A stretch of 64,000 nt of DNA, taken from positions 1 through 64,000 of the forward strand of contig JBGGMJ010000010.1 in the NCBI GenBank assembly GCA_041288095.1, read 5' to 3'. The stretch is from Myxococcota bacterium (GTDB lineage: Bacteria > Myxococcota > XYA12-FULL-58-9 > JALHOP01). Below the pieces are notes generated by a model. It saw nothing but the letters and a program-made list of their open reading frames with translations, did no database searches and had not been told where the DNA came from. Shown here piece after piece: positions 41,220 through 49,263 of this stretch (positions are counted from its first letter, which is position 1; the number at the start of each line of letters is the position of its first letter). Both the position numbers and the translations under genes were made by a program.

Positions 41220-41402
41220 CGTCCGGCGGATCGCGTGATCTCGCGGATCTAGCGCGCCGCGGCCGCTGGTATGTGGCTTGCAGCCCCAGCCCCTCGTGAA
41301 AGTGGTCTTGGGTCAGCTTGCCATCATCGCAGTGTGCCTCGTGGCATGGCTCGGCACCCACCGCCTCTACGCCGGCACCCACGACGACCTTCGGAGGAGT
41401 TC

Positions 41403-42956
41403 ATGGCCAGCGAGTCTCTCTGGCAAGCACGCGTCGCGCGCCCACGCTTCCCAACCTTGCGCGAGGATATCGAAACAGACGTCGTCATCATTGGCGCCGG
41501 CATCACCGGGCTGCTCACCGCGCGGTCGTTGCAACGGCTCGGCAAAGACGTCGTCGTGCTCGAACGCCGGCGTATCGCGAGTGGCACGACTGGATACAGC
41601 ACGGCGCACGTAACGTCGCTGCTCGACTCCGGCTACGCGACCATCGAGAAGAAGTTCGGACGCGAAGCGGCGCATCTTGTCGCCGGTTGTCTCACGCATG
41701 CCATCGAGGACCTGTGCGCTACGGCGGACAGAATGAGCGTGCCTTGCGAGCGCTTGCCGGTGTATCACTATGCGCACGCCGAGTCGGCCCGCGATACGAT
41801 CGCCGAGGAGCTCGCCGCGGCCGACCGCGCGGGGATTGCCGTCGAGCCCGTGGGGGACATTCCCTTCCCAGCGGCCGAGCACGGGGGCTTGCGGGTGCCG
41901 CGTCAGGCGCAGCTCGATCCCGTGGAGCTCGCCTCCGCGCTCGCGTTCGACTTCTCGCAACGCGGCGGACGCATCTTCGAAGACGCTCGGGTCGTCTACG
42001 TCGAGGACGGAGAACCTTGCCGCGTGGAGACCGCGCATGCGCGCGTGCGGGCGCGTGATGTCGTCATCGCGACGCATACGCCCATCGGGCTGTCGTTCTT
42101 GCATACCGAGGTGGCGCCGTATCGCTCGTACGTTATAGCGGCGCGATGCGAGAAGCCGATTGGGCACGGGTTGTTCTTCGATACCGACGAGCCTTACCGC
42201 TACGTGCGGGCGGTCTCCGCCAAAGATCCGGGGATGCTGCTGATCGGGGGAGGCGACCACAAAACGGGCGACCCTGCGTCGGCGGAGGCGTACACGAATC
42301 TCCAACGCTTCGCTTCGGAGCGCCTCGGCGCGAGCGTACCGCGCTTTCGCTGGTCGGCGCAGCTCTACGAGCCGGTGGATACGCTGCCGTACATCGGTCG
42401 ATCGTCGCGCAACGGGCACAACTACGTGGCCACTGGCTATGCCGGCGATGGCATAGCCTTCGCGGCGGTCGCGTCGCGGCTCATCTCCGCGAGCATCATG
42501 GGGAAGGTCCTGCCCGAGGCGGAGCTCATGAGCCCGAGTCGGATCACACCGATCGCGAGCGCGCGGAACTTCATTCGCGAGAACGCGGATGTCGCCAAAC
42601 ACTTCGTCGGCGATCGCCTGAGCATGGCGGAGCAGCGGGACCTCGAAGACGTGGCGCGCGGCGAGGGGCGGTTGGTGCAGCTCGGGATGCGCAAGGTCGC
42701 GGCCTATCGCGACGGCGATGGGCAGCTCCACGTCGTGCGGCCGGTTTGCACGCACATGAAGTGCATCGTGCATTTCAATCCAGTGGAGACGTCGTGGGAT
42801 TGTCCGTGTCATGGGGGACGGTTCGACGTGGACGGGGAGCCGATCGAGGGGCCGCCATTGGCGGGGTTGATGCCGTTCGAGCTCCCGAATCGGATCGAGC
42901 CGGAGCCGGCGACGGTGGCGCCGTTGATGAGTGGGATTGCGCCTAGCTCTTCGTAG
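41403..42956 (+). CDS. FAD-dependent oxidoreductase with C-terminal Rieske domain (YhfW-like)
   Basis: GGAGG RBS; IIGAGITG; CTHMKC and WDCPCHG Rieske ligands. Confidence 0.93.
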   Translation: MASESLWQARVARPRFPTLREDIETDVVIIGAGITGLLTARSLQRLGKDVVVLERRRIASGTTGYSTAHVTSLLDSGYATIEKKFGREAAHLVAGCLTHAIEDLCATADRMSVPCERLPVYHYAHAESARDTIAEELAAADRAGIAVEPVGDIPFPAAEHGGLRVPRQAQLDPVELASALAFDFSQRGGRIFEDARVVYVEDGEPCRVETAHARVRARDVVIATHTPIGLSFLHTEVAPYRSYVIAARCEKPIGHGLFFDTDEPYRYVRAVSAKDPGMLLIGGGDHKTGDPASAEAYTNLQRFASERLGASVPRFRWSAQLYEPVDTLPYIGRSSRNGHNYVATGYAGDGIAFAAVASRLISASIMGKVLPEAELMSPSRITPIASARNFIRENADVAKHFVGDRLSMAEQRDLEDVARGEGRLVQLGMRKVAAYRDGDGQLHVVRPVCTHMKCIVHFNPVETSWDCPCHGGRFDVDGEPIEGPPLAGLMPFELPNRIEPEPATVAPLMSGIAPSSS

Positions 42957-43046
42957 CGCTGGTTCACTCGCGAGCGGTATTCGCGTTGCTTGGTCGCGGC
43001 CTGGGTGGTTTAGCACCGAGAGGGTGGTTGCGCTTCGTTTTCGCTG

Positions 43047-44341
43047 TGTGTCTTCTATTGCGGATGCGCCCCGGGGCGCGTCGTGTAGTTGCGGGCGGCG
43101 TTATGGACGCGGCAAAACAATCTTAGATTCTTCGGGCTCGTCTCGCCGCCGGCGGCGAACTCGTGCTTGTGGTCGAACTCGATCCAGGCGGTGGCGCTAC
43201 AGCGTCTGCCGTCGGCGCTTACGTAGGTGCAGCGGTCTTGGTCGCGTTCAGAGACCTCGCGCCTGGTTGCGGCACTGGGGGCGCGGCCGGGGTCGGGAGC
43301 ACGCTCGCCTTCGGTGGCGTCGATAGCGAGCTGCTTGGGCTTGTCGGTGCGACCGAGCTTGCGCTTCTCGACGGACTTACGGGCAAGCTTGATGGCTTTG
43401 GCGACCACCTTGCCGACGTCGCCGTCGGGGACGCTGTGGCGCACGAGGTCACGCAAGCGCATGAGGTCGGCATAGGTGTCGGCGTCGATAGTGAGCTGGA
43501 GCCTGTAGTGCTCGCCGGTGAGCGGCTTGGGCATCGGCGCACGCGGAGGTGCTGGAGCTTCGACCTTGGGTTCTTCGCGTGGTGCTTCCCGCTCTGCACG
43601 CTCTGCTGCTGCCCGTTCGTTCACGGCCCAGGCGAGCCGTTCTTGTTTGTTGTCGAAGGTCACGGCGGTAACCCGTGTTTCCACCAACGGCTTCGGCTGC
43701 CACGAGGCGACCAAGCGCTCGAGCTCATCGCGGGTCTTCCCAGCAGCAGCCTTCAATCGCGCATCGGCATCAGGGCCATCGAGCGCAGGCGCGAGCACCC
43801 GCACCCCACTCACGTTGAGCGCCCCCGCCCGCAGCATCTCGAGAACAATCGGATGCTCCAGCACGACGTAGGCGACGGTCACGTAGTGCCGCGCCACATC
43901 CTGCCCGTAGCCAATCACCTCATGGCAGTAGGCAAACAAACTCGTACATGCCGATGTCACGTAGAGCCTGCGTCGCGCGACCTCCGCGATGTGCTCGATG
44001 ATGTCTGCCACCACCGCGCGCTCGCGCAAGACGAGAGCCTTCAACGATGCAACCAAAGCCTCGGACGTTAGCGCGGATACGTTCATGGCTCATCGTACCA
44101 CGGGATTTTCGAGGCCTTTCCGAGCCCCGCCACGCCCCGCAAATCACCGCGAACGCGAAAACATCCCACCCCTCCGCAAAAACGCACCAGCGTTCACGGC
44201 AATGCGCGCAGAGGCCATTCTACAGGGTCGCGACACACGAAGGCGGCTCGGTGGTGTCAGGACGCGTCAACAAAAAAGATACAAATCGACACGCAGAAAG
44301 TACGCAACGCGCCCCGGGGCGCGTACGCCATAGCGGACACA
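43047..44341. mobile_element. candidate HNH element bounded by inverted repeats
   Basis: 43047-43081 and the reverse complement of 44307-44341 match at 30/35 positions and bracket the HNH gene. Confidence 0.5.
43055..44086 (-). CDS. HNH endonuclease with DUF222-like helical N-terminal region
   Basis: RDQDRCTY....RRC....EFDH....GG....NLRLFCRVHN. Confidence 0.9.
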   Translation of the reverse strand: MNVSALTSEALVASLKALVLRERAVVADIIEHIAEVARRRLYVTSACTSLFAYCHEVIGYGQDVARHYVTVAYVVLEHPIVLEMLRAGALNVSGVRVLAPALDGPDADARLKAAAGKTRDELERLVASWQPKPLVETRVTAVTFDNKQERLAWAVNERAAAERAEREAPREEPKVEAPAPPRAPMPKPLTGEHYRLQLTIDADTYADLMRLRDLVRHSVPDGDVGKVVAKAIKLARKSVEKRKLGRTDKPKQLAIDATEGERAPDPGRAPSAATRREVSERDQDRCTYVSADGRRCSATAWIEFDHKHEFAAGGETSPKNLRLFCRVHNAARNYTTRPGAHPQ

Positions 44342-44434
44342 GTGCCAGCGCCCGGGTCCATCACACCCCCTCAGTGCCAAACCACCGCGAAGACGAATAG
44401 CAACGCCAAAACGGCTCGCAGTGACCACGCAACG

Positions 44435-45439
44435 TCAAATGTCAGGCTTATCCACGCGCCAGAGCATATCCGCGAACCACCGCTTCCGATCATACCAACG
44501 CGCCGCGACTTGAAACCCAGTCGCCGCCGCCAGCGCCTCGATGTCGCTGTCCAAGTACTTGTACGAGTACTCCGTGTGAATCGGCTCATAGGGATCGAAG
44601 TCGAAGAAGTGCCGCAGGTCCCGCACCGTCACCGTCTGCCGCCTCTGCGACACGAGATAGCTCTCCATCGCGCCGGTGAAGACGTTGTAAGTGCCGAAAT
44701 GCCGCCACGACTCGAGATCGAAATCCGCCCCGAGCTCTCGATTCAACCGCGCCAGCAAGTTGAGGTTGAAGTCCCGCGTGATCCCTTGCTCGTCGTTGTA
44801 GGCGCGCAGGAGCACGTCGATGTCCTTCTTCAGGTCGAACCCGATGAGGACGAGATCGCCGTCCGCCAAAGCGTCCCACATCTGTCGCAAGAACACGCGT
44901 GCGCGATCGGTGCGAAAGTTGCCGATGTTCGAGCCCAAGAAGAGCACGACTGTCCGTTCGCCGTGGGTATCGCGCAGCGAGTGGAGCCCGTCGAAGTACT
45001 CCGCGACGACGCCCGACACCTTCAACGTGGGAAAGCGCCGTCCCATCTTGTCGACGAGGCCCTGCATCGCCGCTTCCGAGATGTCGATCGGCACGAAGGT
45101 GACCTCGCACCCGCGTTCGACGGCTTGTGACAGCAAGATGTCCGTCTTGCGTCCATCGCCGACGCCGAGATCGACGAGCTTGAAGGTCGTGTCTCCGACC
45201 GCGTCGAGGATCGCGTTCTTGCGCGCCTGCAGAATCTCGGCCTCGCAGCGTGTTGGATAATAGTCCTCGAGATCCGTGATCCGCTGAAACAGACGACTAC
45301 CCACGTCATCGTAGAAGTAACGAGAGGATAGACGGCGCGGACGCTCGGACAAGCCCAGGAGCACGTCCTGAGCGAAACGGCGCGACGCGGCGATGGCGCT
45401 GATCTCCGTGGTGTCGAGCACCCGATAGGTCTGACTCAC
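44435..45439 (-). CDS. egtD: L-histidine N-alpha-methyltransferase
   Basis: YFYDDVGSRLF, YYPTRCE, DLGVGDGRKT, FLGSNIGN, IHTEYSYKY; GTGA overlap with egtB. Confidence 0.95.
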   Translation of the reverse strand: MSQTYRVLDTTEISAIAASRRFAQDVLLGLSERPRRLSSRYFYDDVGSRLFQRITDLEDYYPTRCEAEILQARKNAILDAVGDTTFKLVDLGVGDGRKTDILLSQAVERGCEVTFVPIDISEAAMQGLVDKMGRRFPTLKVSGVVAEYFDGLHSLRDTHGERTVVLFLGSNIGNFRTDRARVFLRQMWDALADGDLVLIGFDLKKDIDVLLRAYNDEQGITRDFNLNLLARLNRELGADFDLESWRHFGTYNVFTGAMESYLVSQRRQTVTVRDLRHFFDFDPYEPIHTEYSYKYLDSDIEALAAATGFQVAARWYDRKRWFADMLWRVDKPDI

Positions 45440-46677
45440 GGATCGCGCGCCAGACGGATCCCCGTCATCTGCCAGCGCTTGTCGGGTTGGAAGAAGTTCC
45501 GGTAGCTCGCCCGAATGTGATTCGCCGGTGTCAGGCAGGAGCCGCCCTTCAGCACCATCTGCCCGATCATGAACTTGCCGTTGTATTCTCCGAGAGCCCC
45601 CTCCGGACGCTTGTAGCCTGGGTAGGGTAGATACGCGCTTTGAGTCCATTCCCACACCTCGCCGATCATTGCGTGACTCGTTGGCTCGAAGATCATGGCG
45701 TCGAGGAGCGTCCCCTTGTCCGCTATGGCGTTGCGTTTCGCGGCGGCGTGCTCCCACTCTGCCTCGGTCGGCAGGCGTGCCTTGCGCCACGCCGCGTAGG
45801 CGTTGGCCTCGTAGTAGCTGACATGGGCGACCGGATGTTCGGGAACGAGCGGCTGTAGACCGTAGAGCGTGTGGCGCATCCAGGTGCCGTCGCGCTCGAC
45901 CCAATACATCGGGCTCTTCCAGCCGCGCTCGCGGGTCGTCGCGAACCCATCTGACAGCCACAGATCGGGACGCGCATAGCCCTCGTCACGCATGAACTCG
46001 AGATAGTCGCCTTGGGTCACGAGGCGATCGGCGAGCGCGAAGGGCGCGACATACGCGCGGTGGCGGGGCTCTTCGTTGTCGAAGCAGAAACCGTTGCCAT
46101 CGTGGCCGAGCTCGCTCATGCCGCCGTCGTGGAGCATGAAGCCGGGCGCCGCGGCGGCCACGCGGGGAAGCTTCGCGAGCTCGTCCTCTTTAGCGTACGC
46201 GGGAAAGATGGGCTCCTGATGGAGCACACGCTTGATGTCGGTGAGCAGGAGCTCTTGGTGCTGCTGTTCGTGATGGATGCCCACGGTAACGATTGTCGCC
46301 AGCTTCTCGAGCCGTGGCTGGTCGCACCCGGCGATTAGCTCCACCATCCGCGCGTCTACCGTCTTTCGGTAGGTCATGATCTCGGCGACCGTGGGCCGTG
46401 AGAAACGTCCGCGTTCGGCTTGGGTTACGCGCTCGCCGATGCTGTCGTAGTAGGAGTTGAAGAGGTGCTGCGTCGCCGGGTCGAGGCGGCGGGTGCCATG
46501 GACGGCGAGCACCAAGGTTTCGAAGAACCAGGTGGTGTGCGCCAGGTGCCACTTGGGCGGGCTGACCTCCGCGGCCGGCTGGACCACGTAATCTTCCACG
46601 GCGAGCGGTGCCACCAGGCGCAGGGTCAGGTCCCGCGTCTCGCGATAGGCGCGCGTGAGGTCGTCTCGGGTCATCAC
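45436..46677 (-). CDS. egtB: ergothioneine biosynthesis sulfoxide synthase
   Basis: SPPKWHLAHTTWFFE, FNSYY, HEQQHQEL, FGE-sulfatase-like RLPTEAEWE. Confidence 0.95.
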   Translation of the reverse strand: MMTRDDLTRAYRETRDLTLRLVAPLAVEDYVVQPAAEVSPPKWHLAHTTWFFETLVLAVHGTRRLDPATQHLFNSYYDSIGERVTQAERGRFSRPTVAEIMTYRKTVDARMVELIAGCDQPRLEKLATIVTVGIHHEQQHQELLLTDIKRVLHQEPIFPAYAKEDELAKLPRVAAAAPGFMLHDGGMSELGHDGNGFCFDNEEPRHRAYVAPFALADRLVTQGDYLEFMRDEGYARPDLWLSDGFATTRERGWKSPMYWVERDGTWMRHTLYGLQPLVPEHPVAHVSYYEANAYAAWRKARLPTEAEWEHAAAKRNAIADKGTLLDAMIFEPTSHAMIGEVWEWTQSAYLPYPGYKRPEGALGEYNGKFMIGQMVLKGGSCLTPANHIRASYRNFFQPDKRWQMTGIRLARDP

Positions 46678-47233: not shown

Positions 47234-47409
47234 GACGCGCTCCTTATGGGCGCCGCAATATCAGGGGTTCCGCCGACCCACAATGCAGACCCGCTCGGCG
47301 TTTTCGCGTCGCAAATCGCGACACCACCGGCCCCTCGGGCGCTTCATGGCTTGCCTAGCGCGCGTGCAGTGAGCTTTACAGCGGCACGCGCTTTGCGATG
47401 CCTCGATGC

Positions 47410-49263
47410 ATGGCGAGCGTCGTACAACTCCCCTTGTTCCACGGCGTGACGATGCGCGACCCGCGCGAGCTTCTGGCGAGCGTCTTCGGTTACCACGCGT
47501 TCCGTGGTCACCAGGCGGCCATCATCGATCACGTGGCGGCCGGTGGCGACGCCCTCGTCGTCATGCCGACAGGTGGTGGCAAGTCGCTGTGCTACCAGAT
47601 CCCGGCGCTGATGCGGCCTGGTGTCGCCGTCGTGGTGTCGCCTCTCATCGCGCTGATGCAAGACCAGGTGAGCGCGCTCAAACAGCTCGGGGTTCGCGCC
47701 GCGGTGCTTAACTCGACGCTGTCGACGGGCGAGGCTTCGGCGACCGAAAACGCGATGCGCCGCGGCGAGATCGACCTCGTCTACGTCGCGCCCGAGCGCT
47801 TGGTGCTGCCGCGTTTCCTCTCGGTCATCGAGCGCTGCGATCTTGCCCTGTTCGCCATCGACGAAGCGCACTGCGTCTCGCAATGGGGCCATGACTTCCG
47901 CCCCGAATACTTGCAGCTCGCCATCCTCGCGGAGAAGTTTCCGTCGGTGCCGCGCATCGCCCTGACCGCTACGGCGGACGAGCCGACGCGCAACGACATC
48001 GTCGCCCGCTTGAGTCTCGACAAGGCGCGTCAGTTCATCAGCGGCTTCGACCGTCCGAATATTCGCTACAACGTCACGCCCAAGGCGAATCCGCGCGCTC
48101 AGCTCGCGCGGTTCCTCGCGGTGCACAAAGACGAACCGGGCATCATCTATTGTTTGTCGCGCAAGCGCGTCGACGATACGGCGGCGGCTCTGCGCGAAGA
48201 GGGCATGAACGTCCTCCCCTACCATGCCGGTCTCGATGCGAATGAACGCGCCGGGAACCAGGAACGCTTCCTCCGCGACGACGGCATGATCATGGTCGCG
48301 ACCGTCGCGTTCGGTATGGGCATCGACAAGCCGGACGTGCGCTTCGTCTTCCACGCCGATCCGCCCAAAAGCATCGAGGCCTATTATCAAGAGACCGGCC
48401 GCGCCGGCCGCGATGGAGCGCCCGCGGAAGCGCACATGCTCTACGGGTTGCAAGACATGGCCTTGCTGCGCCAGCTCCTCGCGCGCGGTAATGCCGACGA
48501 CGCTCACCGGCGGGTCGAGCGTCACAAGCTGACGGCGCTCTGGGGCTACTGCGAGAGCATGCGTTGCCGGCGTCAGGTCTTGCTCGAATACTTCGGCGAG
48601 ACGCGCGACGAGGCCTGCGGCAACTGTGACAGCTGCTTGTCTCCGGTGACCGGTTGGGATGGCACGGTCGCCGCGCAAAAGGCGCTATCGGCCATCTACC
48701 GCACTGGTCAGCGCTATGGCGTCGCGTATCTCGTCGACGTCCTGCGGGGCGAGACCAACGAACGCATCGAGCGCGCTGGGCACGACACGCTCGCCGTGTT
48801 CGGTATCGGCAAAGACATCGAGGCGGGCACCTGGCAGTCGGTGTTCCGGCAGCTCGTCGCCGCGGGGCTCGTCGAGGTCGACGTCGAAGGACACGGAAGC
48901 CTCATGCTCACCAACGAGGCGCGGCCCGTGCTACGGGGCGAGAAGGCGATTACGTTCCGGCCCGATTTGCGGCCATCCGCCAAAGCGGTGCGCGGCTTCA
49001 AGCAGCCCGACGAAGACTTGGCCGATCCGAGCGACGTCGCGCTCTTCCATACGTTGCGCAGCAAGCGGCTCGAGCTCGCCAAAGCGCAGAATGTGCCTTC
49101 CTACGTCATCTTCCACGACCGCACTTTGCGCGAGATGGCGCGGCGTAAGCCCAAGAGCTTGGATGAGCTGGCGCAGGTGAGCGGTGTCGGCGCGACCAAG
49201 CTCGAGCGCTATGGGGCGGATTTCGTGGCGCTGGTCGTGGCCCATGCGCACGTTGGTGCGTAG
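47410..49263 (+). CDS. recQ: ATP-dependent DNA helicase RecQ
   Basis: MPTGGGKSLCYQ, DEAHCVSQWGHDFR, YYQETGRAGRDG, CGNCD zinc site, RQC and HRDC domains; start may be 47452. Confidence 0.98.
   Translation: MASVVQLPLFHGVTMRDPRELLASVFGYHAFRGHQAAIIDHVAAGGDALVVMPTGGGKSLCYQIPALMRPGVAVVVSPLIALMQDQVSALKQLGVRAAVLNSTLSTGEASATENAMRRGEIDLVYVAPERLVLPRFLSVIERCDLALFAIDEAHCVSQWGHDFRPEYLQLAILAEKFPSVPRIALTATADEPTRNDIVARLSLDKARQFISGFDRPNIRYNVTPKANPRAQLARFLAVHKDEPGIIYCLSRKRVDDTAAALREEGMNVLPYHAGLDANERAGNQERFLRDDGMIMVATVAFGMGIDKPDVRFVFHADPPKSIEAYYQETGRAGRDGAPAEAHMLYGLQDMALLRQLLARGNADDAHRRVERHKLTALWGYCESMRCRRQVLLEYFGETRDEACGNCDSCLSPVTGWDGTVAAQKALSAIYRTGQRYGVAYLVDVLRGETNERIERAGHDTLAVFGIGKDIEAGTWQSVFRQLVAAGLVEVDVEGHGSLMLTNEARPVLRGEKAITFRPDLRPSAKAVRGFKQPDEDLADPSDVALFHTLRSKRLELAKAQNVPSYVIFHDRTLREMARRKPKSLDELAQVSGVGATKLERYGADFVALVVAHAHVGA

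Follow-up and report, generated by a model that had tools for sequence, protein, structure and literature searches.

Comparative analysis of a 64,000-nucleotide stretch of contig JBGGMJ010000010.1 from a Myxococcota bacterium (assembly GCA_041288095.1; the whole stretch is called the window here) revealed that positions 42957 to 44434 are a discrete, repeatedly inserted, transposase-free unit with its own exclusive ends and palindromes. The balance of the evidence tips toward this interval being an intact copy of a selfish family of 1.3 to 1.6 kb, in which a single gene encoding an HNH protein lies between terminal inverted repeats of about 140 to 190 nucleotides, and which would be autonomous, driven by its own nuclease, and akin to REP13E12. 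A selfish, transposase-free HNH element had been proposed at this position from the sequence alone (the original prediction), and that proposal is supported by an empty site in two congeners, a multicopy family with a patchy distribution, nine other empty sites, and the tie between the palindrome and HNH copies. The genomes compared include the source assembly (G000; 5.85 Mb in 212 contigs, 90% complete) and three other species of its genus (G001, 97% complete; G002; and G003).

Evidence for insertion came from the convergent host genes between which the original prediction had correctly placed the element, one encoding a Rieske-domain oxidoreductase and the other EgtD. The stop codons of this pair are 4 bp apart in G002 (TAG-CGCC-TCA) and 3 bp apart in G003 (TAG-CGT-CTA), while the same stop codons in G000 are separated by 1,478 bp. 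Because both congeners keep only these few base pairs, the interval from 42957 to 44434 is an insertion relative to them, made up of the mobile element (minus strand) and at most a few base pairs of native spacer. Relatives had been put forward as the place to look for an empty site, and both G002 and G003 have one, with no syntenic HNH gene. Orthologues of the Rieske oxidoreductase gene are present in all three congeners; in G001 it has another neighbor and is uninformative on the empty site. Homology of the window copy to other family copies runs from 42964 to 44424, and the likeness between its two terminal repeats starts with TGGTTCACT (42960) and ends with AGTGACCAC (44428), so that CGC remains outside to the left and GCAACG to the right. 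The flanks of the window copy (...TAGCGC and GCAACGTCA...) permit a target-site duplication of 2 bp at most.

The inserted unit is bounded by long inverted repeats. The original prediction had described a 35-nucleotide pair (43047 to 43081 and 44307 to 44341, 30 of 35 positions identical after reverse complementation) and had taken it for the ends of the element. The coordinates and the match were confirmed, and a repeat search of the window extended the pair to 44-nucleotide arms (43047 to 43090 and 44298 to 44341, 82% complementary, with 1,207 nucleotides between them). BLAST comparison of the upstream and downstream regions aligned 42952 to 43090 with 44298 to 44434 over 146 columns (71% identity, E of 8e-11). 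The 35-mers are thus the inner third of terminal inverted repeats of about 139 nucleotides, and the unit extends about 90 bp further on each side, which makes the palindromes they contain subterminal. On the left, the outer part of the repeat (42960 to 43046, the 3' side of the gene) holds the family motif GGTGGTTTAGCACCGAGAGGG at 43004 to 43024, and the inner arm (43047 to 43090) overlaps the last 12 codons and the stop codon of the HNH gene. On the right, the inner arm (44298 to 44341) begins 212 bp upstream of the start codon, and the outer part (44342 to 44428) carries the family motif on the minus strand at 44366 to 44386. Both of these relations between arms and gene had been anticipated.

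These repeats belong to the element. Inverted repeats flanked 11 of 17 copies examined by BLAST in G000 and G002 at equivalent positions. When the outer-repeat motif was searched in the four congeneric assemblies as GGTGG-WTYK-GCAC-YGAG-RGGG with one mismatch allowed, 17 matches were found in G000 and 13 in G002, while G001 and G003 gave no match; 29 of these 30 lay at HNH copies, and the last lay at a gene-less remnant (contig C188) that keeps an arm, a palindrome, and leader sequence. An arm motif specific to another subfamily of the element, designated C, gave the same picture, with 11 of 11 matches at HNH copies, all in G002.

Two minor features of the ends were also seen. The extreme tips of copies in a further subfamily, B, bear one to three tandem units of about 23 nucleotides starting CTTGCGAG, the number varying by copy (left ends on C81, C126, C190, and C41; right end on C212). 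At one G002 copy (L027, contig G002:C5), a 48-nucleotide fragment that is 98% identical to part of the 3' end of the gene lies inverted just outside the 5' repeat, within the 200 bp beside the element, and probably remains from a copy that was nested or had inserted earlier.

The window element is one diverged member of a multicopy family. A tblastn search of G000 found 12 loci, several cut by contig ends, as is usual for repeats. Among 41 related genomes, 8 had matches, including 13 in G000, 28 in G002, 14 in G003, none in G001, and 29 in a genome from another taxonomic family (G038). Over 301 genomes of the phylum, 55 had a match at an E of 1e-20 or better, in 21 of 137 genera, and in one taxonomic family 38 of 40 genomes were positive. 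An alignment-based locus search (5 rows) returned four loci, three in one Bdellovibrionales metagenome-assembled genome and one in a Vicinamibacterales metagenome-assembled genome. Subfamily B is represented in G000 by about 10 copies, with about 57% protein identity and inverted ends of about 190 nucleotides, and these copies share sharp boundaries (C27:53761 and 55395, or 1,635 bp). For nine G002 copies the flanks are contiguous in G000, where 2 to 310 bp replace 923 to 1,773 bp. Insertion sites are thus almost entirely different in G000 and G002, and the family has moved repeatedly since these species split.

Two observations concern more distant members. A paralogue with about 25% identity to the window protein (G000:C17:1155-1985; L040 in G002) sits within a 4-kb block shared by G000 and G002 at 80% identity; judged from this sequence comparison, it seems vertically inherited and is possibly domesticated. 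In G038, elements of 1.9 kb (L043 to L050) encode HNH proteins with about 30% identity and have imperfect terminal repeats of about 20 nucleotides (GATTC..CACA..). The flanks of these elements look like a GC-rich hairpin repeat split in two, as though insertion had taken place within such hairpins.

The sites occupied by the family share a context. Eleven insertions with defined boundaries were surveyed, at 11 unrelated loci. In six, both sides lay no more than 16 bp from the stop codons of convergent open reading frames, a seventh was convergent with a 63-bp gap, and in every one of the 11 a flanking stop codon lay no further than 16 bp from one end or both, in a survey that placed boundaries where interspecies homology ends, a point that tends to coincide with gene ends. 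The empty sites were spacers of 2 to 39 bp in six cases, and in one case the two stop codons overlapped. Because such spacers make up a tiny share of a genome, this distribution suggests that they may be targeted and that survival alone is not the cause. The alternative offered by the original prediction, that the palindrome defines the insertion target, failed, as the empty sites contain no palindrome.

Within the terminal repeats, the palindromes had been described accurately. The right core, ACGCGCCCCGGGGCGCGT (44307 to 44324), is a perfect 18-bp palindrome, and the left core is perfect across 14 bp (43066 to 43079). The shared 14-mer, GCGCCCCGGGGCGC (44309 to 44322 on the right), occurs twice in the window against 0.23 expected, and 2 of 100 shuffles gave at least two occurrences. 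In the entire 5.85-Mb assembly it occurs three times; the third site, on contig C21, lies inside a 719-amino-acid open frame that is otherwise unlike the element, and looks like a chance occurrence. A genome-wide search, proposed as a check on whether the palindrome is merely scattered, thus found it tied to HNH copies.

Four subfamilies carry four different palindromes at one position, with the 5' copy just outside a common GCGTAC-TTT block and the 3' copy overlapping the gene end. Subfamily A, consisting of the window copy and four G002 copies, has ACGCGCCCCGGGGCGCGT; subfamily B has ATGCGCGT(T/C)AACGCGCAT; subfamily C has CCGCCCCGGGGCGG; and subfamily D has AATGCACCGGTGCATT. An adjoining block, TGTC..(C/G)(T/G)ATAGCGG(AC), is kept in all arms (a TGTC..CTATAGCGG-like motif), and a palindrome-bearing arm is found at each end, about 90 to 190 bp in from the tip. 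In a gap-free alignment of 39 arms (30 distinct rows) scored over nine dyad pairs, 94.1% of cells were paired, and seven of the nine pairs showed change on both sides. None of 500 shuffles matched the observed pairing or covariation score, 21 of 500 reached seven two-sided pairs, and sliding the partner by 1 to 3 columns reduced pairing to 32 to 57%. The rows are related by descent, and the changes represent a few clade-level events rather than 42 independent ones. These alignments show that the twofold symmetry of the palindrome is under selection. Because the arms as single strands fold no better than shuffles (z of −1.06 and −1.62 for the 36-nucleotide arms, −1.78 and 0.02 for the full repeats), we read this symmetry as a probable duplex site for a twofold-symmetric protein and not as a notably stable hairpin.

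The candidate for that protein is the sole product of the element, a 343-amino-acid protein encoded on the minus strand (43055 to 44086). The original prediction had described it as a DUF222-like protein with an HNH domain, of which the HNH part stood and the DUF222 part did not. Pfam HNH scored just under threshold in the window protein itself (20.3 bits against a cutoff of 21.4) and matched all 15 homologues examined (best E of 7.7e-06), and the residues expected for zinc binding and catalysis (C286, C296, H306, C325, H328, and N329) are invariant. Pfam DUF222 (PF02720) gave no match to the window protein at an E of 0.01 or better; it matched 1 of 15 homologues at an E of 0.0034 and 1 of 26 profile matches at 19.2 bits, below its cutoff of 24.4, and was present in 21% of members of one near-neighbor Atlas cluster. 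The label of DUF222 member was rejected at the Pfam threshold, leaving a remote likeness. Pfam and NCBIfam detected HNH only, with no DDE, HUH, serine, or tyrosine recombinase domain, and inserts of 923 to 1,773 bp leave no room for a second open reading frame. A word-indexed search found 22 relatives; when 1.84 billion cluster representatives were searched with a profile, 39,339 matched at an E of 0.001 or better, a number that makes the family large, with 9,517 at 1e-30 or better, mostly full-length. The group forms a large, unnamed sister group to the DUF222-HNH proteins, and its Atlas neighbors come mostly from Myxococcota, Acidobacteriota, and Bdellovibrionota. Nonsynonymous-to-synonymous rate ratios (dN/dS) were 0.16 to 0.17 between the window copy and G002 copies and 0.07 to 0.24 among within-subfamily paralogues at synonymous divergences (dS) of 0.19 to 0.53, values that show purifying selection that has kept the protein functional.

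Structural modeling suggests how such a protein could read a palindrome. A PDB sequence search found nothing below an E of 0.1, and a three-part architecture was taken from an AF2 model (mean predicted local distance difference test score [pLDDT] of 76, from a 15-row alignment), with a predicted ParB/KorB-like helix-turn-helix at about residues 6 to 135, a ribbon-helix-helix-like module at about 191 to 252, and the HNH nuclease at about 270 to 335. The three best VIA matches for residues 6 to 135 were the DNA-binding domains of ParB (Z of 8.9; root mean square deviation of 9.4 over 128 residues), Spo0J (8.8; 3.3 over 107), and KorB (8.1; 3.5 over 109), and Foldseek gave probabilities of 0.93 to 0.97 with E values of 0.3 to 0.7. 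Residues 191 to 252 matched ribbon-helix-helix proteins at Z scores of 4.6 to 5.2, and residues 260 to 343 matched HNH nucleases at 5.2 to 5.6, with McrA, Gme HNH, and IscB HNH at 5.3 to 5.6. Residues 186 to 256 were predicted to form a homodimer with a score of 0.52, compared to 0.00 for the best control, with at least 94% of contacts agreeing between runs and a partner pLDDT of at least 68; 20 of 30 solved homomers, and 1 of 23 monomers, passed the mark for calling a homodimer. In the predicted dimer, strands 192 to 200 pair antiparallel, as in solved ribbon-helix-helix dimers, and the pass may reflect likeness to those solved structures. Dimers of ParB, of KorB, and of ribbon-helix-helix proteins recognize symmetric DNA sites, a mode of binding that by analogy fits the palindromes.

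Decayed copies provided a second view of the ends. Three subfamily B copies (C190, C100, and C175) have internal deletions and retain both inverted ends and both palindromes. On the 3' side, the deletion started at or 3 to 7 nucleotides inside the palindrome in two of the three, at the same BLAST endpoint (C27:53968), which is blurred by microhomology; on the 5' side, it started 6, 16, and 25 nucleotides inside the palindrome in all three. Each deletion form among these copies was found at a single locus, which gives no sign of mobilization in trans. Either the end modules were kept by selection or breaks occurred beside the palindromes, and both readings point to the arms as cis-acting parts.

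Taken together with the model, these features outline a mechanism in which the protein would dimerize through its ribbon-helix-helix module, its DNA-binding domains would read the subterminal palindromes at both ends, and its HNH domain would make the breaks that free or copy the element. HNH enzymes hydrolyze DNA, and we know of no HNH nuclease that catalyzes strand transfer or joining. Because of this chemistry, host repair or replication would finish the integration into very short convergent-gene spacers. The ends, which are long and rich in hairpins, would probably also insulate the element from read-through transcription of both flanking genes. More tentatively, with the chances somewhat against it, the family could represent a class of transposable elements in which a sequence-specific HNH nuclease, guided by a ParB-like helix-turn-helix and a ribbon-helix-helix, is the sole element-encoded mobility enzyme, with no DDE, HUH, serine, or tyrosine recombinase, and in which that enzyme reads subfamily-specific palindromes and lands the element between convergent stop codons. 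If the nuclease alone suffices, this would be a new catalytic class in bacterial transposition, and HNH-only mobility would also explain the spread of REP13E12-type repeats.

Several observations weigh against an autonomous, nuclease-driven element. We infer the mechanism, and its integration step needs a partner beyond the HNH protein. The distance of the palindromes from the tips means that cutting beside them alone would not free the outer repeats, which are inserted together with the rest. Paralogues within one genome differ by a dS of 0.3 to 0.5, and movement is therefore slow or old, unlike a typical insertion-sequence burst. No target-site duplication was visible at subfamily B flanks, and none was found through filled and empty pairs, in which spacers and junctions could not be aligned between species. 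The ParB/KorB fold matches fall below the Z score of about 13 that is safe for helical domains, which makes them suggestive and not safe. In subfamilies C and D, the subfamily's own palindrome occurs once more within the gene, about 200 bp ahead of its end, a placement as compatible with regulation as with mobility; in five C copies (G002 L028, L031, L032, L035, and L038) and one D copy (L037), this additional palindrome codes for the residues that follow a conserved Arg-Ala-Pro. Finally, the distant relatives in G038, with their short imperfect terminal repeats, lack such palindromes; because of this, the palindrome module is clade specific and not required across the family, and no palindrome of at least seven paired bases was found at equivalent positions in copies from G003, G006, G013, or G038.

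One alternative reading is that the unit is a nonautonomous terminal-repeat element moved in trans by an unlinked transposase, with the HNH protein as a passenger that aids persistence, for example by cutting so that repair recopies the element, as proposed for TnpB and IscB of IS200/IS605 elements. The hydrolytic chemistry of HNH enzymes, the age of the copies (dS of 0.3 to 0.5), and the lack of a visible target duplication all favor it, and an autonomous partner could be missed in incomplete assemblies such as G000. Nuclease-assisted retention of transposons is also the subject of a review (PMC13565253). Against this stands the constancy of the gene: no other gene was ever seen between the repeats, no outer-motif match was found away from HNH copies or the remnant of one, and the HNH gene is the only feature constant across subfamilies and distant relatives with different ends. 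In addition, a protein-only nuclease could not recognize the 11 unrelated donor sites. We consider movement in trans unlikely.

Another reading, which can coexist with an autonomous element, treats the palindromes as gene-control sites, serving upstream as an operator for autorepression and at the 3' end as a terminator or roadblock. The positions would suit this, one palindrome lying 212 to 230 bp upstream of the start codon and the other overlapping the stop codon, as would the additional intragenic palindrome of subfamilies C and D. Ribbon-helix-helix and KorB-type domains, to which the modeled folds were matched, are typical repressor modules. Related 13E12 genes of Mycobacterium tuberculosis are placed under LexA control in PMC3381160. 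Other observations stand against this reading. No terminator-like site was predicted at either palindrome (the single one found, against 1.6 expected, lies inside the open reading frame), the arms fold unremarkably, and a hairpin-like inverted repeat upstream of the organism's own lexA gene (C203), the one upstream region compared for SOS control, did not recur in the element leader. The conserved arm also reaches 20 to 25 nucleotides past the palindrome and is inverted at both ends, and decayed copies that have lost gene and promoter retain both palindromes. Gene control as the explanation of the palindromes is therefore doubtful, at a level a little below that of movement in trans.

Homing, in which the nuclease would cut the palindrome of a preexisting arm-palindrome-arm unit, repair would copy the gene in, and duplication of the palindrome would create an inverted repeat with palindromic cores, is the least probable of the explanations considered: homing genes of the free-standing HNH type are well established, an exact 16-nucleotide direct repeat (43066 to 43081 and 44309 to 44324) coincides with the core within the inverted arms, and deletions start beside the palindromes, but no unoccupied unit was found (all 30 outer-motif matches and all 11 subfamily C arm matches lay at an HNH copy or the leader-bearing remnant), and empty sites in G002, G003, and G000 are 2 to 39 bp of unrelated spacer in six cases, with no repeat unit. 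Since empty sites lack the unit and no unoccupied units exist among these matches, it is the whole element, including its outer repeats, that arrives at a new locus.

The closest known system is REP13E12 (13E12) of Mycobacterium tuberculosis, whose units are about 1.4 kb in size. Like the window family, it consists of dispersed multicopy units whose sole product joins a helical N-terminal domain to an HNH domain at the C terminus and which have an insertion-element-like repute. REP13E12, HNH, and DUF222 loci are counted among repetitive elements in PMC10589994, and recombination between REP13E12 copies is reported in PMC13157036. Tested against the features of this type, the element showed the C-terminal HNH domain and the dispersed multicopy unit of about 1.3 to 1.6 kb and lacked the DUF222 domain. 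It also differs in belonging to another phylum-level lineage, and no SOS-type operator was recognized in the comparison with lexA. Because the protein falls below the Pfam DUF222 threshold, we file the element by analogy as likely working like the REP13E12 family and not as a member of it. In the literature searched, neither long inverted repeats at the ends, with a subterminal palindrome that covaries, nor comparisons of filled and empty sites (ten here) were found described for REP13E12.

Other mobile systems share parts of this organization. Like insertion sequences and their derivatives of the miniature inverted-repeat type (MITE-like), the family consists of short units with one gene each between terminal inverted repeats, differs in copy number among close relatives, has empty sites in other genomes, and includes copies with internal deletions in which both ends are retained. 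Of the features that define an insertion sequence in the ISfinder sense, terminal inverted repeats and presence or absence at conserved loci were observed and a transposase of a recognized class was not; no target-site duplication was seen, and intragenomic copies are diverged rather than nearly identical. To our knowledge, no insertion-sequence family uses an HNH enzyme as its transposase, and none was found in the literature searched. Free-standing HNH homing genes, associated with phages and introns, are likewise selfish genes encoding a sequence-specific HNH nuclease, but they occupy one cognate homologous site, whereas this family is found at 11 unrelated sites with its own long inverted ends. 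IscB/OMEGA systems of IS200/IS605-type elements also have an HNH-containing nuclease as the only gene of a transposon-like unit. In contrast to IscB, the window protein lacks a RuvC domain (the NCBIfam model guided_IscB gave 13.3 bits, its cutoff being 175, and covered the HNH part only), no Rfam match was obtained beside its gene, and the ends are long inverted repeats rather than asymmetric hairpins.

In the full-text literature searched, which does not extend to subscription journals or supplements, no HNH-only mobile element bounded by inverted repeats was described. DUF222/HNH repeats of the 13E12 type have been regarded as insertion-element-like for decades with no mechanism, and the papers searched present them as nothing more than repeats, hot spots of recombination, or targets of LexA. 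New here are the covarying, subfamily-specific palindrome, the collection of filled sites with empty counterparts, the location of copies between the stop codons of convergent genes, and the domain reading of the protein. For future work, the genus offers dated insertions paired with empty sites, four subfamilies with changed but symmetric palindromes, decayed copies that define cis modules, and a protein with predicted reading, dimerizing, and cutting parts. How an HNH-only element moves is thereby open to binding, cleavage, and mobility assays.

The region upstream of the gene (44087 to 44297, minus strand) comprises a leader and promoter region. Its proximal portion of about 135 nucleotides is conserved as DNA in alignments across subfamilies A, B, and C, although the proteins of these subfamilies are only about 47 to 57% identical, and the window leader (44087 to 44220) contains a small inverted repeat, ACGC-TGGT-GCGT. 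The original prediction had proposed a check for an associated noncoding RNA within 44087 to 44434. No Rfam family matched 42800 to 44600 at an E of 1 or better, the RNA fold across 13 leaders was unconvincing (RNAalifold scores of −16.6 sense and −9.9 antisense; single-sequence z of −0.6 against mononucleotide shuffles), and with no structured RNA detected the idea was dropped. A promoter scan predicted no sigma-70-like sites.

The host genes on either side are outside the element. To the left, following an alpha/beta hydrolase gene on the plus strand, is the gene for a flavin adenine dinucleotide (FAD)-dependent oxidoreductase with a C-terminal Rieske domain (41271 to 42956, plus strand; stop codon TAG at 42954 to 42956; Pfam DAO at 9.4e-43 and Rieske at 1.7e-12). 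To the right, on the minus strand, are egtD, encoding a histidine-specific methyltransferase (44435 to 45400, start approximate; stop codon at 44435 to 44437; Pfam Methyltransf_33 at 9.5e-103), and, upstream of it, egtB (45436 to 46677; Pfam FGE-sulfatase and DinB_2). Further out, a full-length recQ helicase gene lies on the strand opposite egtB (47398 to 49263), in an ordinary context. No transposase gene was found among the neighbors in the window.

Public sequencing runs held the stretch as low-depth contigs in two soil-metagenome runs of one study, with the filled site only, and a third run of that study did not contain it. Contigs of run X1 span both junctions between element and flank, and this run may simply be the source sample. 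In these public data, no contig joined the flanks without the element, no joints were reported, and no RNA run was listed with the stretch.

A separate REPIN-like dispersed hairpin repeat, AATGGGGAC-N-CCATT, was also encountered in the genus, with 40 matches in G000, 15 in G002, 2 in G003, and none in G001. That the outer repeats of the element might be halves of a preexisting dispersed hairpin repeat was ruled out, as all 30 outer-motif matches lie at HNH copies or the remnant; unlike REP and REPIN sequences, the outer motif was never found dispersed alone in the assemblies searched. The AATGGGGAC-N-CCATT repeat often occurs as inverted doublets, 30 to 55 bp apart, after gene ends (for example, G000 C4:12477-12543, C55:16587-16658, and C209:25661-25679). 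It sometimes abuts subfamily C elements and fills the G000 empty site of one G002 insertion. The gene-less remnant (G000:C188:113900-114200) is a subfamily D 5' end that is broken off where a dispersed hairpin-repeat doublet starts.

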